In this document: piece after piece, positions 47,767 to 55,413 of the stretch
Numbering within the stretch: position 1 is the stretch's first letter
How the letters are laid out: each line of letters begins with the position of its first letter
DNA from: Pseudomonadota bacterium
Lineage (GTDB): Archaea; Thermoplasmatota; SW-10-69-26; JACQPN01; JAJPHT01
Direction: 5' to 3'
Length of the DNA stretch: 60,947 bases
Assembly (NCBI GenBank): GCA_021325135.1
Contig: JAJPHT010000037.1
Location: 1-60,947, forward strand
Notes under the pieces: generated by a model
Told to the model about the DNA's origin: nothing
Seen by the model: only the letters and a program-made list of their open reading frames with translations
Databases searched by the model: none
Program-made: the position numbers and the translations under genes

Positions 47767-48042
47767 ATGCGGAAGGAACTCGAGGAGGCCCTCGGCCTCG
47801 ACGAAGCCCTTGCGATCGACTCCAGCCTTGTGAACGTCCGCCTGGACACCCGTCGCTACGGGAAGAGCGTCACCCTTCTGGACGGCTTTGATCCCACCGT
47901 GGACATCAACGCCCTCGGCAAGCAGCTCAAGCAGGCCATGGGCACGGGCGGCACCGTGCGCGACGGCGTGATCGAGCTGCAGGGCGACCACCGGCGCGAC
48001 GTCCGCGAATACCTGGAGCAGCGCGGGTACAAGCTGGCATAG
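47767..48042 (+). CDS. sui1: Translation initiation factor SUI1/aIF1 (YciH-like)
   Basis: RRYGKSVT, LGKQLK..GTGGTVRDGVIELQGDHR; tttaag TATA at 47734. Confidence 0.92.
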   Translation: MRKELEEALGLDEALAIDSSLVNVRLDTRRYGKSVTLLDGFDPTVDINALGKQLKQAMGTGGTVRDGVIELQGDHRRDVREYLEQRGYKLA

Positions 48043-48184
48043 GCGCTGCCGTTCCCAGGGAGCTCGTCACACCCGCAGTCGCGGCTCGCCCAGAGCTTCG
48101 GAGATCAGACGGCCGTGCGCTCGGCCCGCTCCCGCTCAATGAAGACTTGCAGAAGCGCGAGATTGGGGATGCAACTCAGGGACG

Positions 48185-49909
48185 CTACTCCTCTAGGAGG
48201 ACGGGGGGAGTATCCTCGGGCTTGGTCAGTTCATTGTCCTCCTCTTCGCCGGTTGCCACGCCTTGGATTCCCAACAAGTTGGAGACAACGAGCACGTCGA
48301 GACCGTCGAGATTGAGCCGTGGTGCCTGCGTGGCCCCCACGTCGAGCTTGAGTGTACGAGAAAGCGACCACGTCACGATCCCAGCAAGGTTGCGCTGCTT
48401 CGCTTCACGCAGATGCTTCACGTTAATGGAATGCTGGACCCCGTAGAAGCGTGGCTCGCTCCACCCGCCATTCTCGCGCGTCTGGAGCAGGACGAGGCCG
48501 TGCTGCTCGGGGCTGAAAGACAGAAGACGGTAGTCCTCGGCGACCCGGCTGACGGCGGAGTCAAGCGCGCTGTTGGCCAAGAGACTCTGGAAAACCAGCA
48601 GCGTGCCAATCTTCTCTTGAGGCTCAAAATAGGGCCCCCCAGCGAGCGTCTCGGGAAGCTCGCGGCGCGTGCTCAAGTCAAGGACTGTGAATGTGATGCG
48701 GTTGTTCGCCTCCGAGTGGTCCCAGGCTGCCTTGCACTCCTGCAGTTCCCGGTAGCCTTGGCCGGCGAAGCGCGGGCCTTTCTCGATCGTCTCGCCCAGA
48801 TACTCGAAGCGGCGGCCGCGCAGGGCATCATTGATCAGTTGGCGCACGGCACGCACGAGCGCGTCGTACACGCTTCCGTCACCGGTGTCCACGAAGTCCT
48901 CGCGGCTCATGGTCAATTGCAAGTCCTGGCAGTTCACGAGGACGTGGAAGCTCTGCCATTCGCCGCTGTTGCCCGTCACCTCTTCGTTGACACTTCGGAT
49001 GGCGAAGTGGTCCTTGCAAAGGAATACGCCCTTGAAACGCTTCTTGATGCGACGGTCCTTGACGACATGCGCGTTGGCTCCCACAACGGCGCCCGCCACC
49101 TGCGCTTCCGCCAGAGGTCTTCCTGCCTCGTCCTTGACAGTGAATTTGAAAGGATCGAACACATAGACGAAGTCGTTGGGGTCCAAGGGGCCTGCACCCT
49201 TCCGGCGAGGGGGTGCTTCGGGAAGGAGGTGACCGTTGACAACGTCGGTGCTGTCGGGCCGGTTGATGTGGCGCCGCGTGACCCTGACCTCGAACCTTGG
49301 GGACTTCGTCGAGCCCTTGAGCTTCGGCTCGAAGATTTCTCGTGCGCTTCCTGCAGCTGAGTACCACCGCAGGTAGTTGACGATGCCATCGACGCTCAAG
49401 AGCGGCGACTGCGTGTTTACGGGGATGCCGGAGATCTCGATGCGTGTTCCGTACTTGAACCGCAACACGTGCTTTGCGCGCCGGACTTCAAAACTGGGGA
49501 GGCGACCTTCCTTGAGCGCATCGACGGGGGCGTTGAGGGTTGCCTCATACGAGTGCCCATCCTTCGTAATCGTCTGCACGCGAACACGCCGGCTATTGAA
49601 GTAGAGCTTCGTGCCCAGTCCCTTGTGCCCGATGAAAGCGCCGCCTGTTTTCTCCGGAATCTTTTCCGACATGGCAAGCCCGAAGAACTGTGAAAACCGG
49701 TTGCGCTCGATGCCGTGGCCGTTGTCCTCGATGATGAGGTCCAGCGTGTCGCGCGAGAGCGGGTTGATGTCGAGGTGGACGCGTCTCGCCCCAGCATCCC
49801 ACGCGTTGCTGACGGCTTCGCGCAGAATGCTGCGGGGATCGCGCTTCTCGCGGATGACCTGAAGGAACAGGCTTGCATCGTTGATTTCGCAGGTTTCCAA
49901 GGACTTCAC
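48185..49909 (-). CDS. GHKL (HATPase_c_3/MORC-like) ATPase with S5-like domain and possibly degenerate C-terminal nuclease-like domain
   Basis: LREAVSNAWDA, IEDNGHGI, IGHKGLGTK, GTRIEI; GTG start overlaps TGT stop (GTGA). Confidence 0.88.
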   Translation of the reverse strand: MKSLETCEINDASLFLQVIREKRDPRSILREAVSNAWDAGARRVHLDINPLSRDTLDLIIEDNGHGIERNRFSQFFGLAMSEKIPEKTGGAFIGHKGLGTKLYFNSRRVRVQTITKDGHSYEATLNAPVDALKEGRLPSFEVRRAKHVLRFKYGTRIEISGIPVNTQSPLLSVDGIVNYLRWYSAAGSAREIFEPKLKGSTKSPRFEVRVTRRHINRPDSTDVVNGHLLPEAPPRRKGAGPLDPNDFVYVFDPFKFTVKDEAGRPLAEAQVAGAVVGANAHVVKDRRIKKRFKGVFLCKDHFAIRSVNEEVTGNSGEWQSFHVLVNCQDLQLTMSREDFVDTGDGSVYDALVRAVRQLINDALRGRRFEYLGETIEKGPRFAGQGYRELQECKAAWDHSEANNRITFTVLDLSTRRELPETLAGGPYFEPQEKIGTLLVFQSLLANSALDSAVSRVAEDYRLLSFSPEQHGLVLLQTRENGGWSEPRFYGVQHSINVKHLREAKQRNLAGIVTWSLSRTLKLDVGATQAPRLNLDGLDVLVVSNLLGIQGVATGEEEDNELTKPEDTPPVLLEE

Positions 49910-52122
49910 TCCGCGGGGATGTGCTTTCGAATCTCCTCGATGAGCTGGGCGACGTTGGTGGCGGAGCGGAACTCGCTCACCGTGTGCGCACGAAGGGGGG
50001 ATGGAAGGAGAGCGGCGTTGCGTCGGCCCTCCAAGGCGAGGCCGAACGCTTTGCGGTAGGGCTTGGGCGTGCAATAGCCGACGACGAAGTCGTATCGCCC
50101 CTCGTGTTGCTTGAGGAACCGCTGTGTCCGCTCGGCAACCAGATCGATGCGATCCTTGTTGCTTGTGTGAAGCATGTAGTCGTAAGCAAGGACGTTGGTC
50201 GTCGTCTCAAATGACTCCGGAACGGGGCCATAATTGCCGCTGATCGTGACTTTGTGGACGAGGCCCATGGGGATGCCCGCCGCGCGCAAGCTCTTGTCAA
50301 TGAAGCGATGCGTGGATGACTCCGCGTAGGGCTTGCGCTTTGTGCATGGCAGGAGGAGCAGCACTGGGACCCGTGGCATCTGATAGTCCGTGCTCAGAAT
50401 GTCGAAGTCTTGGGGTCCCAGATGGGCATTCACTTGGATTTCGGCTGCAGCAGAGCCGCGGGATCGCCCTTCGACTGGCCGCCCGCTCAGGTCCATCTGC
50501 ATGGGCGCTGGGCGGGAGGTGGACGCTGAAACGTGCGTAGGGCGCGTGGTGACGCGTGATCCCAGCCGCTTCACGCCGACCTTCCACATGTACTCGCTTA
50601 GTTCAGGATGAATGGAAGTCATCGTCTGCAACACTTTGCGATGCTTGATGTTGCTCGCGGCGGTTGCGATGAGACGTTCTATGGGCTCCGTGCCACGCTT
50701 CGCGCTGCGAAGCATCTCGGCCATCACAAGGCCCGTCTCCATGTTGTGCAGCGAGAGAAGCGCATAGAAGTAGGACCGAGGAACGCCTGGCGGCGTATCC
50801 TCAAGGCCGTCCTTCTGGGCGCGCGTCTTTGGCGGAGAGCGCTGGTGATCGACGTAGCCATCCTTCCATTCGAAGTAGCCGCTGTAGCTCTCTGTCTGGG
50901 GCGACATGATCCACTGCGCCGCCGCTAAGCCCTCAGTCGGCGCGCCGCGCGGCGCGTTCTCCCAGCGGCCGCGCTTGATAAGGGTGCAGCCACGACACCC
51001 GCACGGCAACTCCCTAAGCGTTTCGAACCGCCAGGGCGTGAAGCCACCAGGGCTCAGGTACGTGAGATTATGGGACGCTTGGACGAAGGAAGAGCCATCG
51101 TAGGTGTCCACGCCCATGAGCGTCAGGAAAGGCGCCAGCCCGCTGTTGACGCCGAACGCATGGATGGGGATGCGTGACGGGTCCAGTGACGGATCAATCT
51201 CGTCCGCGCGGTGGAAGACTTCCATGGCACCGCGCACAGAGTCCATAAGGGCGCGTGGCGACGAATTCAGCGGCACAAGCGAGCCCAAAGCGAGACCGAA
51301 GGGCCGGTCCTGCAGCCCCTCATCCACGACGCGACCTAAGATGGCACGCATGTAGTCATGCATCTCGCGTCGGTTGCGGCCGTGGACTGCGAGGTAGACG
51401 AGCTTCTCATCTGCATCCTCGCGGCCGGAATCTTTGAGAAGCTGCAACGTCTGGATGGCGTTATCCATGGACTGGACAAACCGCTCGCGGGCATCAGCGT
51501 CTGGGGCCGCCGGGTGAACAGGATAGTCAAGGCTCGCTAGGAAATCGCCTCCGAATGCGAGCTGCAGGTTGAGGATGTCTCGGGGGACCGCGCGCCAGCC
51601 ATAACGTGACAGGTCAATCTGCTGCGACGAGAGGAGCTTGTAGCCGCCCGAGTCGAGGAAAAGGAATGGCGGCTGGCGGCGAGGACGCATGTCGGCTGGC
51701 GCGTTCCGCAACTCTTCCCGCAAGTAGTTGGGAATGGTGCGCCCTCTCCCGCTGCGCGTCCCCAGCCATCGGTCCAGCATGTCATCAGAGATGTGATAGT
51801 CCAGGAAATGCAAGACTTGGGTCAGGAAGCCTTCCATCTCCGGGAACGTCGAGGCACCGTCGGGGTACTCATCGGTGGAGTATGGCACGCCAACGTCTCG
51901 CAGAGTGAGCCGTTTGAGCCATTTCCAGACGCCACCGTTCGCCATGAGCGGCCCATAGCCGTTCAAGTAGTCCGCCTGAGTGGGAGGTCCGGTGATGATG
52001 TTCAGGATGGGATGGAAGTGGGGAGTGTGCAACTCACGCTTGCGTGAGCCATCGCGTGCGAGAAACGTACCCGTGCGCAGGTGGAGGCGGCCTGTCTCCT
52101 TGGACTCGAACGCGATGGGCAT
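49906..52122 (-). CDS. tRNA-guanine-transglycosylase-like protein fused to ArcS/DUF5591-like domain
   Basis: TP.F.P, FLDSGGY, SLDYP, AVHG, ALGSLVP, PIHAFGV, GVDTYDGSS, LPCGCRGC...LHN; C-terminal LLLPCTKRKPYAESSTH. Confidence 0.88.
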   Translation of the reverse strand: MPIAFESKETGRLHLRTGTFLARDGSRKRELHTPHFHPILNIITGPPTQADYLNGYGPLMANGGVWKWLKRLTLRDVGVPYSTDEYPDGASTFPEMEGFLTQVLHFLDYHISDDMLDRWLGTRSGRGRTIPNYLREELRNAPADMRPRRQPPFLFLDSGGYKLLSSQQIDLSRYGWRAVPRDILNLQLAFGGDFLASLDYPVHPAAPDADARERFVQSMDNAIQTLQLLKDSGREDADEKLVYLAVHGRNRREMHDYMRAILGRVVDEGLQDRPFGLALGSLVPLNSSPRALMDSVRGAMEVFHRADEIDPSLDPSRIPIHAFGVNSGLAPFLTLMGVDTYDGSSFVQASHNLTYLSPGGFTPWRFETLRELPCGCRGCTLIKRGRWENAPRGAPTEGLAAAQWIMSPQTESYSGYFEWKDGYVDHQRSPPKTRAQKDGLEDTPPGVPRSYFYALLSLHNMETGLVMAEMLRSAKRGTEPIERLIATAASNIKHRKVLQTMTSIHPELSEYMWKVGVKRLGSRVTTRPTHVSASTSRPAPMQMDLSGRPVEGRSRGSAAAEIQVNAHLGPQDFDILSTDYQMPRVPVLLLLPCTKRKPYAESSTHRFIDKSLRAAGIPMGLVHKVTISGNYGPVPESFETTTNVLAYDYMLHTSNKDRIDLVAERTQRFLKQHEGRYDFVVGYCTPKPYRKAFGLALEGRRNAALLPSPLRAHTVSEFRSATNVAQLIEEIRKHIPAE

Positions 52123-52245
52123 CCCGAACACCAGTGCGAGCAAAGCGGCGCGCCGCCCGCCAACACAACCTGAGTTGTGTAGGGAGTAGACCTCGCTTCA
52201 CGTATGAAGCCGACAGGGGGTGCAGTGGAAGGACACCTCGAGAGC

Positions 52246-54066
52246 TCAGGGTTTTCTCGCCTTCTTGCTCGTTGCCTTCTTCGTGACTACTTTCTGCTTG
52301 GCGGGTCCTGCGGGCTTAACTGACGTCTGAATCTTCTTCCAAGCCTCACCTGAGAGGAAGTCTTGCACCTTGTCCTCAAGGATCTCCGAAAACTTTTTCT
52401 CGGACAATCCCGAGGTCAACAGATTCGTATTTGTCCTCGTTTTGAGCGTTTCCTTGACCGTAGAGTCCTGATAGAATCGTTGCACTATCTCGTGGGCACC
52501 TGCCATCAATGCTTCCATGAGAGGACGGTCGTCCAGGGTAGCCTGCAGGCTATTGGGAGAGACATCGCGATAGTCCGAGGTAAGTTCCTTGGACTTGACG
52601 AGAAGTCGCCAAGTAAGGTTCGTGAACAACCACTTGGCTTTACGATATCGAGTCCGTAGGGGGTCTTCCCCGCGCTTCGTGTTGCCTCCGTAGTCCCAGT
52701 GCGCCTTGCCGTACTGAGCCACGAGGAAAGGGAACAGCAGGAGGTTGGGGTGCGGATCGGCAGGAAACGTGATGTCGCCTGGCTCAAGAGACGTTGTGCC
52801 ACCTGCGTACGCAACGCCCGGGCCCTTTGCGAGCGAGGTGTACGCCTGCAGCGCGTCAATTGCCCGGATCCAGGCCTGTGGTGGACTCCATAAATACCTC
52901 CACTCTTCGCGACCGCGATACTTGGAGCGGATCGAATCGTCCAAGTTGGCCCATTCCTTCTCCTGGATTTCGTAGAAGTAGTTCATCTTCGAGAAGAGGT
53001 TGTGAAGGTGGCGTTGAACATCGTCTAGGGCAAAGAGGTGCTTGCCCTTGACGGCATTCTGCCTGTTGGTATACATTGTAATGAAGTCGATGATGTCCGG
53101 GCGCTGAATGATCCGAACAAGAACGTCCCCATGAAGGCGTTTGGGGCTTCGATCCCGCGCAATGTTACGGACGACTCTCGATGTCTGACACCCGTTGACG
53201 ACTTGGGGGCCCGTGAGCGTCAGCGTGCCGCTCTTCAGCTGGAAGGCCTCACAAACAATAGTGATCCCGTTGTTGAAGTACCAGAACATCTCGGGCTGTT
53301 CTAGAATCGTGGATGCAATCCCTTGGTGCACAGTGGGGAGCCCGTCATTCTTCTTCAAATTAAACGTTGTAGGGCCCGAATAGTTACGGATGTTGCTCGC
53401 GAACAAGCCAAGCCGCTCGGACTCCTTGACCAGCGTAGCCAAGCTTGCGAGAGGCATTGCAACCACAACCGAAGAGTCATACTTGATGTGCCCAGCCTTG
53501 GCCGAGACTTTGAGTTTGAAGGTCTTGTCACTGATCTGCTTGGGGATGGCTTGCGTCTGAGGCGTGGCGAGCTTCTCTAAGTCCCAAACCTCGAGTTCGG
53601 GGCGCTCTCCTGCCCAGGCTTCAATCTTCGTCTTCTGGGCTGCAGTCAAGACATTGTCTGTGACGTAGATGGCGCGCAGCATCTTCCCGTTCTCGGCAAT
53701 CTCGTTCTCAGCAATGCGTTCGATGAGTTCTTTCACCCTCTGCGACTTTGCGGTCTTGATTCCTTTCTTCCAACGGGGAATTGCGTCTTTGAACGAACTC
53801 AATGCGGCCCACTTGTGGGCCGACCCGTACTTGCCTTGGATCACGTAGATGGTACCTGAGTCCACGACCAAGGCGTCAATTTCGTCATCTGGGCCGCCGG
53901 TCAGGAGAGAATCCAGCACCTCGGATTCGACGTCAGGGAGTAGGGTCTCGACCGCCCACTTTGTGAAAGCTCTGCCCTTCTCGACTGCCGAGGCGTTTGC
54001 CCCAATGCCCTCCTGTTTGAAGAACGTAGCAATTGCCGACCGCACAATATCGTGGCTCGCACCCAT
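52246..54066 (-). CDS. AIPR (abortive infection phage resistance) family protein
   Basis: LFASNIRNY, PEMFWYFNNGITIVC, QVVNGCQTS, ITMYTNRQNAVK; N-terminal DDEIDA..IQGKY. Confidence 0.9.
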   Translation of the reverse strand: MGASHDIVRSAIATFFKQEGIGANASAVEKGRAFTKWAVETLLPDVESEVLDSLLTGGPDDEIDALVVDSGTIYVIQGKYGSAHKWAALSSFKDAIPRWKKGIKTAKSQRVKELIERIAENEIAENGKMLRAIYVTDNVLTAAQKTKIEAWAGERPELEVWDLEKLATPQTQAIPKQISDKTFKLKVSAKAGHIKYDSSVVVAMPLASLATLVKESERLGLFASNIRNYSGPTTFNLKKNDGLPTVHQGIASTILEQPEMFWYFNNGITIVCEAFQLKSGTLTLTGPQVVNGCQTSRVVRNIARDRSPKRLHGDVLVRIIQRPDIIDFITMYTNRQNAVKGKHLFALDDVQRHLHNLFSKMNYFYEIQEKEWANLDDSIRSKYRGREEWRYLWSPPQAWIRAIDALQAYTSLAKGPGVAYAGGTTSLEPGDITFPADPHPNLLLFPFLVAQYGKAHWDYGGNTKRGEDPLRTRYRKAKWLFTNLTWRLLVKSKELTSDYRDVSPNSLQATLDDRPLMEALMAGAHEIVQRFYQDSTVKETLKTRTNTNLLTSGLSEKKFSEILEDKVQDFLSGEAWKKIQTSVKPAGPAKQKVVTKKATSKKARKP

Positions 54067-54416
54067 GCGTTACCGGCCGCTCCCACCGATGTTGCTTGCC
54101 TTAAACTCCTGTGCGCTCACGCGTGCGCTCGACACCCGGCATCACGTTGGGCGGCGCCCTGCTCCAGTAATGCTTACATATCCAGTGTTCTCATGGGTTT
54201 TCCCTGCCCGCCGCTACGCACCCCTCGGAGAGCCGGGACCCGACGCTTCAACCGTGTCGAGTCCCCCTGTGACGTGGGCCGCTGACGGGCGGGTCACCTT
54301 CATCCGTGCGGCGGAGGCTGGGGAAGCCCCGCCCGTCGCACCCCCCTCCGTCAAGGAGGTGGCGCGGAGATCCCGCGCCTGCCGGTGAGACGGAACGCAG
54401 ACGGGCGGGCCACTTT

Positions 54417-55163
54417 CTACGCGGACGGGTGCAGGCGGCGCCGCACGAACGCGGGCGGGTAGTACGCGGCGAGGCTCGCGACCGCCGCGCCCAGGCCCAG
54501 GACGACGAGGGTGAGGAAGATCACGACGTCGTTGGCGAAGAGGCGCGCCGCGAGGCCGCCTCCGAGGTAGGCGAGGATGCTGCCGCCCAGGAGCGCGATG
54601 CGATATCGTTTTTCGGGGTCCTGCACGCGCCGCAGGAGGCCGAAGTAGCCCAGGCTCGCGAGGATGGGCGGCAGGCCGACGACCGCGTAGACGAGGCGGT
54701 AGAGGGGCGCGCTGTCGTCCACCTCGACGAGCCACGTCTTGACGCGAAGCGTCTGCGGCCCGGAGAACGTGGCGTAGGCGAACGTCGCGGCGGCGACCAG
54801 GTAGAGGAGCGCCAGGGGGATGGCCGCGCTCGTCCTTCCGGTGTAGAGGTAGAGGAGGTAGAACGTGAGGCCCCACACCGAGGCGCACAGCAGGGGGATG
54901 GCGACGATGCGCGAGCCCAGGTAGGTGCCCAGGTCGAGCGCGCCGACGCCGGCCGCCATGGTGAGGCTCCCCTGGAGGACGAGGTACGCGCCCAGGCAGA
55001 GCCACCACGCGGTGTGCGCGCGCCGCGCGAGGCGGGCCGCGTCGCTGGCGAGGCGCTGCGACACGGCGCGCGCCACGATGGCGAACCCCACGCCGGTCAC
55101 GACCGACAGGGCGCCGGCCAGGAGGAGGGTGGCGCTGCTCACCTGGAGAAGGGCCTTGTGCAT
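54417..55163 (-). CDS. Multi-pass membrane protein, paralogue of 4421-5284
   Basis: WW..LG, WGL..YL.YL.TGR, LPPIL, AAY.PPA shared motifs; start could be GTG at 55142. Confidence 0.8.
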   Translation of the reverse strand: MHKALLQVSSATLLLAGALSVVTGVGFAIVARAVSQRLASDAARLARRAHTAWWLCLGAYLVLQGSLTMAAGVGALDLGTYLGSRIVAIPLLCASVWGLTFYLLYLYTGRTSAAIPLALLYLVAAATFAYATFSGPQTLRVKTWLVEVDDSAPLYRLVYAVVGLPPILASLGYFGLLRRVQDPEKRYRIALLGGSILAYLGGGLAARLFANDVVIFLTLVVLGLGAAVASLAAYYPPAFVRRRLHPSA

Positions 55164-55228: not shown

Positions 55229-55343
55229 CGCGGCCTGCGGCCGCGCGGGGCCCTCCCGCTCGGGTTCGGCCGAACTGCGGTTCGGCCTCCCACTTTTTCT
55301 TCAGCGGAAGCGCCAGGGCGCTTCCGCTGAAGAAAAAAGTGGG
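55229..55343. repeat. Palindromic element abutting tRNA 3' end (possible terminator)
   Basis: cccactttttcttcagcggaagcgcc (55289-55314)/ggcgcttccgctgaagaaaaaagtggg (55317-55343); cgcggcc-tgc-ggccgcg (55229-55245). Confidence 0.75.
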
Positions 55344-55413
55344 CCTGCCGAGATTTGAACTCGGGGCAAAAGCTCCGCAAGCTTTCAGGTTATCCAGACT
55401 ACCCCACAGGCCC
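55340..55413 (-). tRNA. tRNA-Arg (anticodon GCG), intronless, no encoded CCA
   Basis: GGGCCTG acceptor/CAGGCCC-A; anticodon arm AAAGC-TTGCGGA-GCTTT; T arm CCGAG-TTCAAAT-CTCGG; 74 nt. Confidence 0.96.

Follow-up and report, generated by a model that had tools for sequence, protein, structure and literature searches.

A TGT-DUF5591 fusion protein from a low-GC archaeal island as a candidate two-step deazaguanine enzyme that probably acts on DNA

We describe a protein in which a TGT barrel and the core of the archaeosine synthase ArcS (DUF5591) form a single chain. It is encoded on contig JAJPHT010000037.1 of assembly GCA_021325135.1, labelled Pseudomonadota bacterium at NCBI (GTDB lineage Archaea; Thermoplasmatota; SW-10-69-26; JACQPN01; JAJPHT01); the window below is this whole stretch of 60,947 nucleotides. 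Our analysis indicates a real and conserved candidate for a two-step deazaguanine enzyme, most likely acting on DNA. On balance, we regard the fusion as a probable Dpd-like writer, which would put preQ0 into host DNA and then work on its nitrile, with dG+, dADG or an amine adduct as the product. An earlier reading of the window (the sequence-only reading) had also proposed a two-step enzyme probably acting on DNA, taking the loss of a PUA domain and a His-for-Gln replacement as signs of DNA. The proposal itself is partly supported, but what points to DNA is the gene context, which that reading did not use, and neither of the two signs. It had likewise not seen the widespread family or the coupled ATPase partner.

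Domains, active sites and spread of the fusion

The gene is one intact open frame on the minus strand with its stop end at 49906 (Table 1), and its product bears out the sequence-only description of a single-chain TGT and DUF5591 fusion without a PUA domain. Pfam DUF5591 matches residues 577-684 at 50.6 bits (cut-off 26), and Pfam TGT gives 18 bits, below its cut-off. The AlphaFold model (mean pLDDT 83.5) consists of a barrel, a linker and a C-terminal domain. In this predicted model, the barrel matches P. horikoshii arcTGT (1iq8) with Z 32.2 and rmsd 2.6 over 345 residues, followed by bacterial TGT (Z 28.5), DpdA (7ui4, Z 19.7) and Cap10 (9ntn, Z 17.9), and residues 574-741 match AF0587 (2q07), an ArcS C1-type domain, with Z 15.9 and rmsd 2.4 over 138 residues. 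The C-terminal domain therefore models as DUF5591 both in Pfam and in fold, a point on which the sequence-only reading had let its proposal depend. Since the chain ends directly past this core, it has no space for a PUA domain, and none was found in it.

The catalytic residues of the barrel are complete. The fusion has the TGT superfamily set of TIM barrel, general acid/base Asp, base-binding Asp and nucleophile Asp, with D160, D202 and D345 aligned to the three Asp that are catalytic in TGT and DpdA, and its Zn site CxCxxC...H is made up of C377, C379, C382 and H462; these residues, together with H250, are invariant among 34 aligned relatives. H250-G251 takes the position of DpdA H181-G182. 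The C-terminal domain carries the ArcS motif, which is absent in related DUF6884 domains and would arise by chance in a protein of this composition with a probability of ~8e-8. All TGT and ArcS motifs of the sequence-only reading were recovered, the ArcS motif having been placed there at ~50308-50362.

A chimera or assembly artefact is ruled out, since proteins 99.9-100% identical to the fusion come from two other assemblies and a protein search returned 249 relatives; nearly all of those among the 120 listed carry both domains. Species-representative genomes contain 131 family stretches, with hosts among Poribacteria, cyanobacteria, Chloroflexota, Nitrospirota and haloarchaea; Halorubrum, Thermogemmatispora, Planktothrix and Dictyobacter are cultured carriers. 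Across 265 distinct family sequences, DSGG and His-Gly (or His-Ala) are each kept in all 265; 256 keep GSL[VI]P and 239 the ArcS motif in its strict form. This conservation indicates that both active sites are under selection. Two longer members (P0172 and P0185, 847-880 aa) also have both motifs. No relative was found in IMG/VR contigs, and phage records gave only weak ordinary TGT matches; for a viral origin, this counts as "not found" and not as absence.

In the barrel tree, the family groups with a stand-alone haloarchaeal paralogue (100/99), and arcTGT, bacterial Tgt and DpdA all fall outside this clade; a sister position to DpdA has support 63/18, with a DpdA sample that is cyanobacterial only. 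Phage DpdA1-4, Salmonella DpdA and Cap10 are not among the sequences of this tree; for them, the comparison is limited to structure or profile. The DpdA models (NF041059 and PADLOC DpdA) do not match the fusion and match 7 of 34 relatives weakly (best E 1.6e-6).

The sequence-only reading had allowed that the fusion might be the sole TGT of its genome and branch within arcTGT, and had suggested looking for separate tgtA, arcS and queCDE/folE genes. The genome, archaeal by its alanyl-tRNA synthetase, TgtA and ArcS, has them all. Its own TgtA, on contig C30, scores 537 bits against an NCBIfam cut-off of 350, and its own ArcS, on contig C43, 457 bits against 440; a RaSEA gene adjoins the housekeeping arcS on a contig other than that of the island. 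Homologues of QueC, QueD, QueE and FolE2 are encoded elsewhere in the genome, outside the island, so that a supply of preQ0 in trans is possible. By the same models the fusion reaches only 30 bits for arcTGT (TIGR00432, cut-off 350) and 65.8 bits for ArcS (NF040592, cut-off 440). It lacks the C-terminal C2 and PUA domains of arcTGT and ArcS, and there is no RaSEA partner within the island. The arcTGT proteins form one clade at 98/97 with the fusion outside it, and the topology test rejects a clade of the fusion with the genome's own TgtA (p-AU 2.9e-6). In all five other carriers checked (4 bacterial, 1 haloarchaeal), a canonical Tgt or TgtA is likewise present. The genome described here also has a second QueC homologue, a divergent one (143 bits; L228:5322-5984, G000 C40), which adjoins a GNAT gene, with no que or defence genes near it.

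Gene context and partners of the family

Clustering of the family at 60% identity gave 24 clusters with 9 kb of DNA or more, whose representative neighbours were identified with Pfam, NCBIfam and PADLOC. A DpdJ-like helicase lies within 8 kb in 13 of them, que genes in 12, GHKL in 11, a DpdK-like PLD protein in 7 and at least one of the listed partners in 20; these counts come from related genomes and partly from profiles of the same loci, and describe a pattern, not a statistical test. The DpdJ-like helicases score below the DpdJ cut-off and one adjoins a DrmB-like gene, so that "DpdJ-like" denotes a wider helicase family. Example loci run folE2-queC, fusion, GHKL, AIPR (70% identity); fusion, GHKL, queE-queC-queD-folE2; and queC-queD-queE, ParB, fusion, dpdE, dpdJ-like. 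A small DUF6884 protein, a second TGT and GHKL stand beside the fusion at haloarchaeal loci, DUF262 and HEPN at cyanobacterial ones, and some Poribacteria copies come after a methylase and a MutH-like nuclease. One neighbour protein is matched by the DUF5591, DUF6884 and DUF328 (DpdC family) models alike, which indicates that the three are related. In many cases the coupled neighbour is an NTPase, known or predicted, be it GHKL, ParB, DUF262 or AIPR. At two metagenome loci, ParB-family genes overlap the start of the fusion gene (L125:6674-7918 and L178:3581-5023). HerA-like ATPase genes adjoin the fusion in L049, L115, L116 and L153, with a NurA-like gene in L049; these loci may overlap with the described BRC systems, which include a TGT (10.1101/2025.10.09.681413).

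In the island described here, the coupled gene encodes a GHKL ATPase, and its likely GTG start overlaps the TGA stop of the fusion (GTGA). GHKL directly follows the fusion at every locus examined in its subclade, commonly with a stop/start overlap. The ATPase residues E28, N32, D59 and G-x-K-G-x-G-T-K are invariant, and the model matches MORC, MutL and Hsp90 ATPases with Z 19-20 (MORC3, Z 19.7). The C-terminal 120 residues have a PD-(D/E)XK-like fold and show a weak match to the nuclease domain of NucS (Z 5.9); the catalytic D/ExK residues are not kept here, and the nuclease motif is missing from all of the more than 50 cassette copies inspected. Distant homologues (P0134-P0137) retain G-x-D-L-L-V...E-x-K, and one such homologue has no TGT within 10 kb; active nucleases were called from the alignment, a regular expression having given false positives. 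Taking together the conserved ATPase, the dead nuclease and the tie to the putative writer, GHKL would fit a DpdB-like ATP-dependent helper: ATP hydrolysis by DpdB is required for preQ0 insertion by DpdA (PMC10164549). No answer came from a complex prediction with the fusion and GHKL residues 290-548 (score 0.06, mark 0.32), which is used neither way. On a single contig, queC and a fusion-GHKL pair are adjoined by another GHKL gene, divergent and with its PD-(D/E)XK motif intact (L086:2382-4142, minus), which could be the restriction partner at that locus.

The third gene of the island encodes an AIPR protein, in which an N-terminal D-x-IDA...IQGK resembles a restriction-nuclease motif (weak NERD match). 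AIPR is the sole candidate effector in the island, so that the cassette may be either a minimal system or an orphan modifier. Its link to the fusion is the weaker one, because AIPR goes with the fusion at only two loci, on different sides and with 30% identity. AIPR has been reported to be related to DndB's N-terminal domain (PMC3506569), and DpdB is DndB-related (PMC5699537).

Proposed reaction and competing explanations

From these results we propose the following scheme. The barrel would excise a specific guanine from host double-stranded DNA via a covalent D345 intermediate and insert preQ0, a first step suggested by its complete catalytic residues. The preQ0 would be drawn from the host FolE2/QueD/QueE/QueC pathway, whose genes are present. 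On its flexible linker, the ArcS core would then reach the inserted base, and its motif Cys would attack the nitrile. The coupled GHKL ATPase with its dead nuclease could perhaps serve as an ATP-dependent helper, as DpdB does for DpdA. The resulting mark would serve self/non-self discrimination or protection from nucleases. A more specific form of this proposal, which we put forward tentatively, is a cell chromosome carrying archaeosine or an amine/lysine amidine of preQ0, written by a one-chain enzyme of a TGT clade not described in the literature searched, where a MutL/MORC-type ATPase with a dead nuclease would replace DpdB as the ATP-driven helper and perhaps select the site.

The 7-substituent loop G-S-L-V-P-L fits the preQ0-type consensus GGhsbb at 5 of 6 positions, with Ser for the second Gly, and its L-V-P-L fits the preQ0 and not the preQ1 type; preQ0 is thus a likely, though not certain, inserted base. 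As to the product, DpdA2 of nt-1 together with a stand-alone DUF5591 protein (ArcS2) yields dG+ in E. coli (10.1101/2023.04.13.536721), T. kodakarensis ArcS yields preQ0-lysine, which RaSEA completes (PMC11298593), and DpdC turns dPreQ0 into dADG in a separate step (PMC10164549). Since no RaSEA is found in the island, a lysine adduct, if made, could persist. We would place dG+ first, at somewhat less than an even chance, with dADG well behind it, an amidine of lysine or another amine slightly lower, and any other product last.

In its working, the fusion would be most like DpdA2 and ArcS2 of nt-1, or like DpdA, DpdB and DpdC condensed to two genes. The nt-1 pair likewise combines a transglycosylase with a bare ArcS core bearing PC-x3-KPY-x2-S-x2-H (10.1101/2023.04.13.536721, PMC6884629); there, however, two viral genes are involved, whereas the fusion is one chain on a cell chromosome, of a different TGT clade and with a coupled ATPase. 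With Dpd of Salmonella Montevideo, the fusion shares the three catalytic Asp, the His-Gly at the base edge and, but for the Ser at the second Gly, the preQ0-type loop (PMC10164549). Both also have an ATPase as a neighbour and a domain for nitrile tailoring that belongs to one wider superfamily, and relatives of the fusion adjoin DpdE-, DpdJ- and DpdK-like genes. Unlike in Dpd, the tailoring domain is fused and of the ArcS type, not DUF328, the ATPase is GHKL and not DpdB, the clade is separate, and the island has no dpdB, dpdC or dpdD-K genes. In the literature covered, dG+ is reported from viral DNA, and cellular Dpd gives dPreQ0 or dADG.

BRIGADE, a predicted system reported only from halophilic archaea, is described as Dpd-like; it combines part of the 7-deazaguanine cluster with YprA helicases and a small nuclease of the PLD type (PMC12458937). 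Haloarchaeal loci of the fusion family show this layout, with a YprA-family helicase and PLD, and are therefore probably BRIGADE loci; the wider system has probably been noticed, its enzyme left unnamed. Neither a TGT-DUF5591 fusion nor GHKL is mentioned in the BRIGADE text and the supplements covered (PMC12458937). The present island differs in having no YprA helicase, PLD or PD-(D/E)XK nuclease gene. A Haladaptatus plasmid (L190:14893-31899) carries two fusion copies, a second TGT, DUF6884, GHKL and a small PLD, along with a large AAA-domain protein and a DEAD-box helicase, and resembles BRIGADE type I.

Among the housekeeping enzymes, TgtA (1iq8) has the nearest solved barrel fold, but it has C2/PUA domains and no ArcS motif domain; ArcS has the same C1 catalytic motif, but with a degenerate barrel and a PUA domain, and it works with RaSEA. 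The fusion has an intact barrel and a C1 core, and nothing after. Cyanobacterial DUF6884-DpdA fusions annotated as dpdA (e.g. WP_062436786.1) also join a TGT fold to a DUF5591/DUF328-related domain in one chain, but in the reverse order, within the true DpdA clade and without KPY-x2-S-x2-H. Such cyanobacterial "DpdA" proteins (L192:1074-3149, L210 and L211; ~690-730 aa, N-terminal DUF6884-like domain) represent an independent fusion. No published description of a TGT-DUF5591 fusion was found in our literature search, with most subscription journals outside its scope.

Several observations weigh against a DNA writer of the Dpd kind. The barrel fold is nearer to arcTGT and bacterial TGT than to DpdA, and a clade of the fusion with arcTGT is not rejected (p-AU 0.50), so that a sister position is possible. 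Because of the Ser in place of the second Gly, the base may differ from preQ0. STSV-2, which encodes DpdA and ArcS2, carries dCDG and not dG+ (10.1101/2023.04.13.536721), so that the product is not readable from the genes. The Poribacteria group (45 loci) lies mostly among ordinary genes, the island has neither que genes nor DpdJ/K, and the neighbour counts give only a pattern.

The foremost alternative is an RNA modifier whose preQ0 or archaeosine would go into a non-canonical position of tRNA or into some other RNA, for instance as a tRNA shield against anticodon nucleases, hence its place on defence islands. It would agree with arcTGT as the top structural match, with the ability of ArcS to take short RNA and even a preQ0 nucleotide (PMC11298593), with the HEPN-domain neighbours in cyanobacteria and with the many Poribacteria copies that stand alone. 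The missing PUA domain is not diagnostic for DNA, since arcTGT can modify tRNA without PUA (Sabina and Soll 2006, as cited in PMC11298593). Nor is the His diagnostic: it matches His181 of S. Montevideo DpdA (PMC10164549), yet the sampled cyanobacterial DpdA keep Gln. We nevertheless consider an RNA target unlikely, given that most of the recurrent partners are DNA-acting (DpdJ/K-like, DpdE, DrmB, ParB, GHKL, methylase, MutH-like) and that the hosts already carry their own tRNA enzymes.

TGT chemistry is a reversible base exchange, and the barrel might instead recognize viral 7-deazaguanine and excise it or revert it to guanine, the ArcS core being a second binding or hydrolysing site. Such an anti-virus reader or eraser would account for stand-alone copies and for the family not being found in viral contigs or phage records, and glycosylases against phages with modified guanines have been described (10.1101/2025.10.29.685425). 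It is less probable still than an RNA target: half of the clusters with good sampling have biosynthetic que/folE genes no more than 8 kb away, which suggests that preQ0 is consumed, and the ArcS catalytic motif is strictly kept (239/265).

A component like Cap10, with the deazaguanine bound or transferred on a protein partner as in type IV CBASS and not on nucleic acid, seems very unlikely. Cap10 is a defence-associated protein of TGT fold and QueC is a frequent neighbour, but Cap10 has the lowest Z among the TGT-fold matches, no CBASS nucleotidyltransferase is seen among the annotated neighbours, no CD-NTase or Cap9 gene occurs in the island, and the QueC nearby is accompanied by QueD, QueE and FolE2, as it is in base biosynthesis. 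Finally, a duplicate or replacement of the housekeeping arcTGT/ArcS for tRNA G15, which the archaeal host and the kinship of both domains to archaeosine enzymes might suggest, is largely refuted by the full separate set, the rejected clade with the genome's own TgtA, the scores far below the cut-offs and the bacterial members of the family.

The DNA writer that we favour would offer, in one chain, a compact test of how an ArcS core selects ammonia, water or lysine, at a time when it is still puzzling what ArcS2 and DpdC produce (STSV-2 makes dCDG). That GHKL, ParB, DUF262 and AIPR replace one another as neighbours bears on the question raised in PMC10164549 of why ATP is needed for base exchange in cellular DNA. 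The family also provides the predicted BRIGADE systems with a candidate writer. This locus adds to the family a non-halophile archaeal member in a minimal three-gene island, and a dead-nuclease GHKL partner.

The island and its surroundings

The island contains only AIPR, the fusion and the GHKL ATPase. Its genes have 55-62% GC and GC3 of 0.69-0.77, against GC3 of 0.96-0.97 in three flanking genes. In a same-genus genome (G002), 1.5 kb of unrelated DNA separates the two flanks (the SUI1 gene, and 54192 and beyond). The family profile did not find the fusion in 60 related genomes, 4 of the same genus, where the best matches were at housekeeping level (at most 85 bits, against 741 for the fusion gene). 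The GC3 contrast, the failure to find the fusion in the relatives searched and the replacement at the syntenic site together indicate an accessory cassette, most likely an imported one. The island borders showed neither an integrase gene nor att-like direct repeats, and a promoter/terminator scan, not designed for archaea, stayed at chance level.

Table 1. Positions of the features discussed, in window coordinates
Feature	Position	Strand	Basis or remark
Low-GC island	48036..54191		Between SUI1/YciH gene and region downstream of tRNA-Arg
GHKL (MutL/MORC-like) ATPase gene	48185..49909	minus	Pfam, fold match, alignment
TGT-DUF5591 fusion gene	49906..52131	minus	741 aa from GTG 52131, or 738 aa from ATG 52122
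TGT (beta/alpha)8 barrel with Zn site	50584..52131	minus	Fold match to 1iq8, invariant residues
DSGG	51654-51643	minus	Fusion motif
LDYP	51531-51520	minus	Fusion motif
AVHG	51390-51379	minus	Fusion motif
GSLVP, 7-substituent loop G283-S-L-V-P287	51285-51271	minus	Fusion motif
GVDTYD	51114-51097	minus	Last Asp, D345, equivalent to nucleophile
CGCRGC	51003-50986	minus	Zn site; His462 near 50748
Disordered linker, residues 524-563	50443..50562	minus	pLDDT <50 in AlphaFold model
ArcS C1 / DUF5591 core	49909..50412	minus	Pfam, fold match to 2q07, motif
LPCTKRKPYAESSTH, motif PC-x3-KPY-x2-S-x2-H, residues 595-608	50352-50308	minus	ArcS motif
SG-x-YGPVP, motif of fusion family	50241-50218	minus	In DUF5591 core
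AIPR (AbiU) protein, 606 aa	52246..54066	minus	VNGCQT motif in AIPR domain
tRNA-Arg(GCG)	55339..55413	minus	1.1 kb from island edge; context only

Between the tRNA-Arg and the SUI1 gene, two same-genus genomes carry different genes, so that this interval looks like a variable spot. A perfect 21-nt inverted repeat (55294-55337) lies directly downstream of the tRNA-Arg(GCG). At the right edge of the island are two imperfect 36-nt repeats (54266-54301 and 54382-54417); similar sequence is kept in the genomes G002 and G004, possibly as a small non-coding element.

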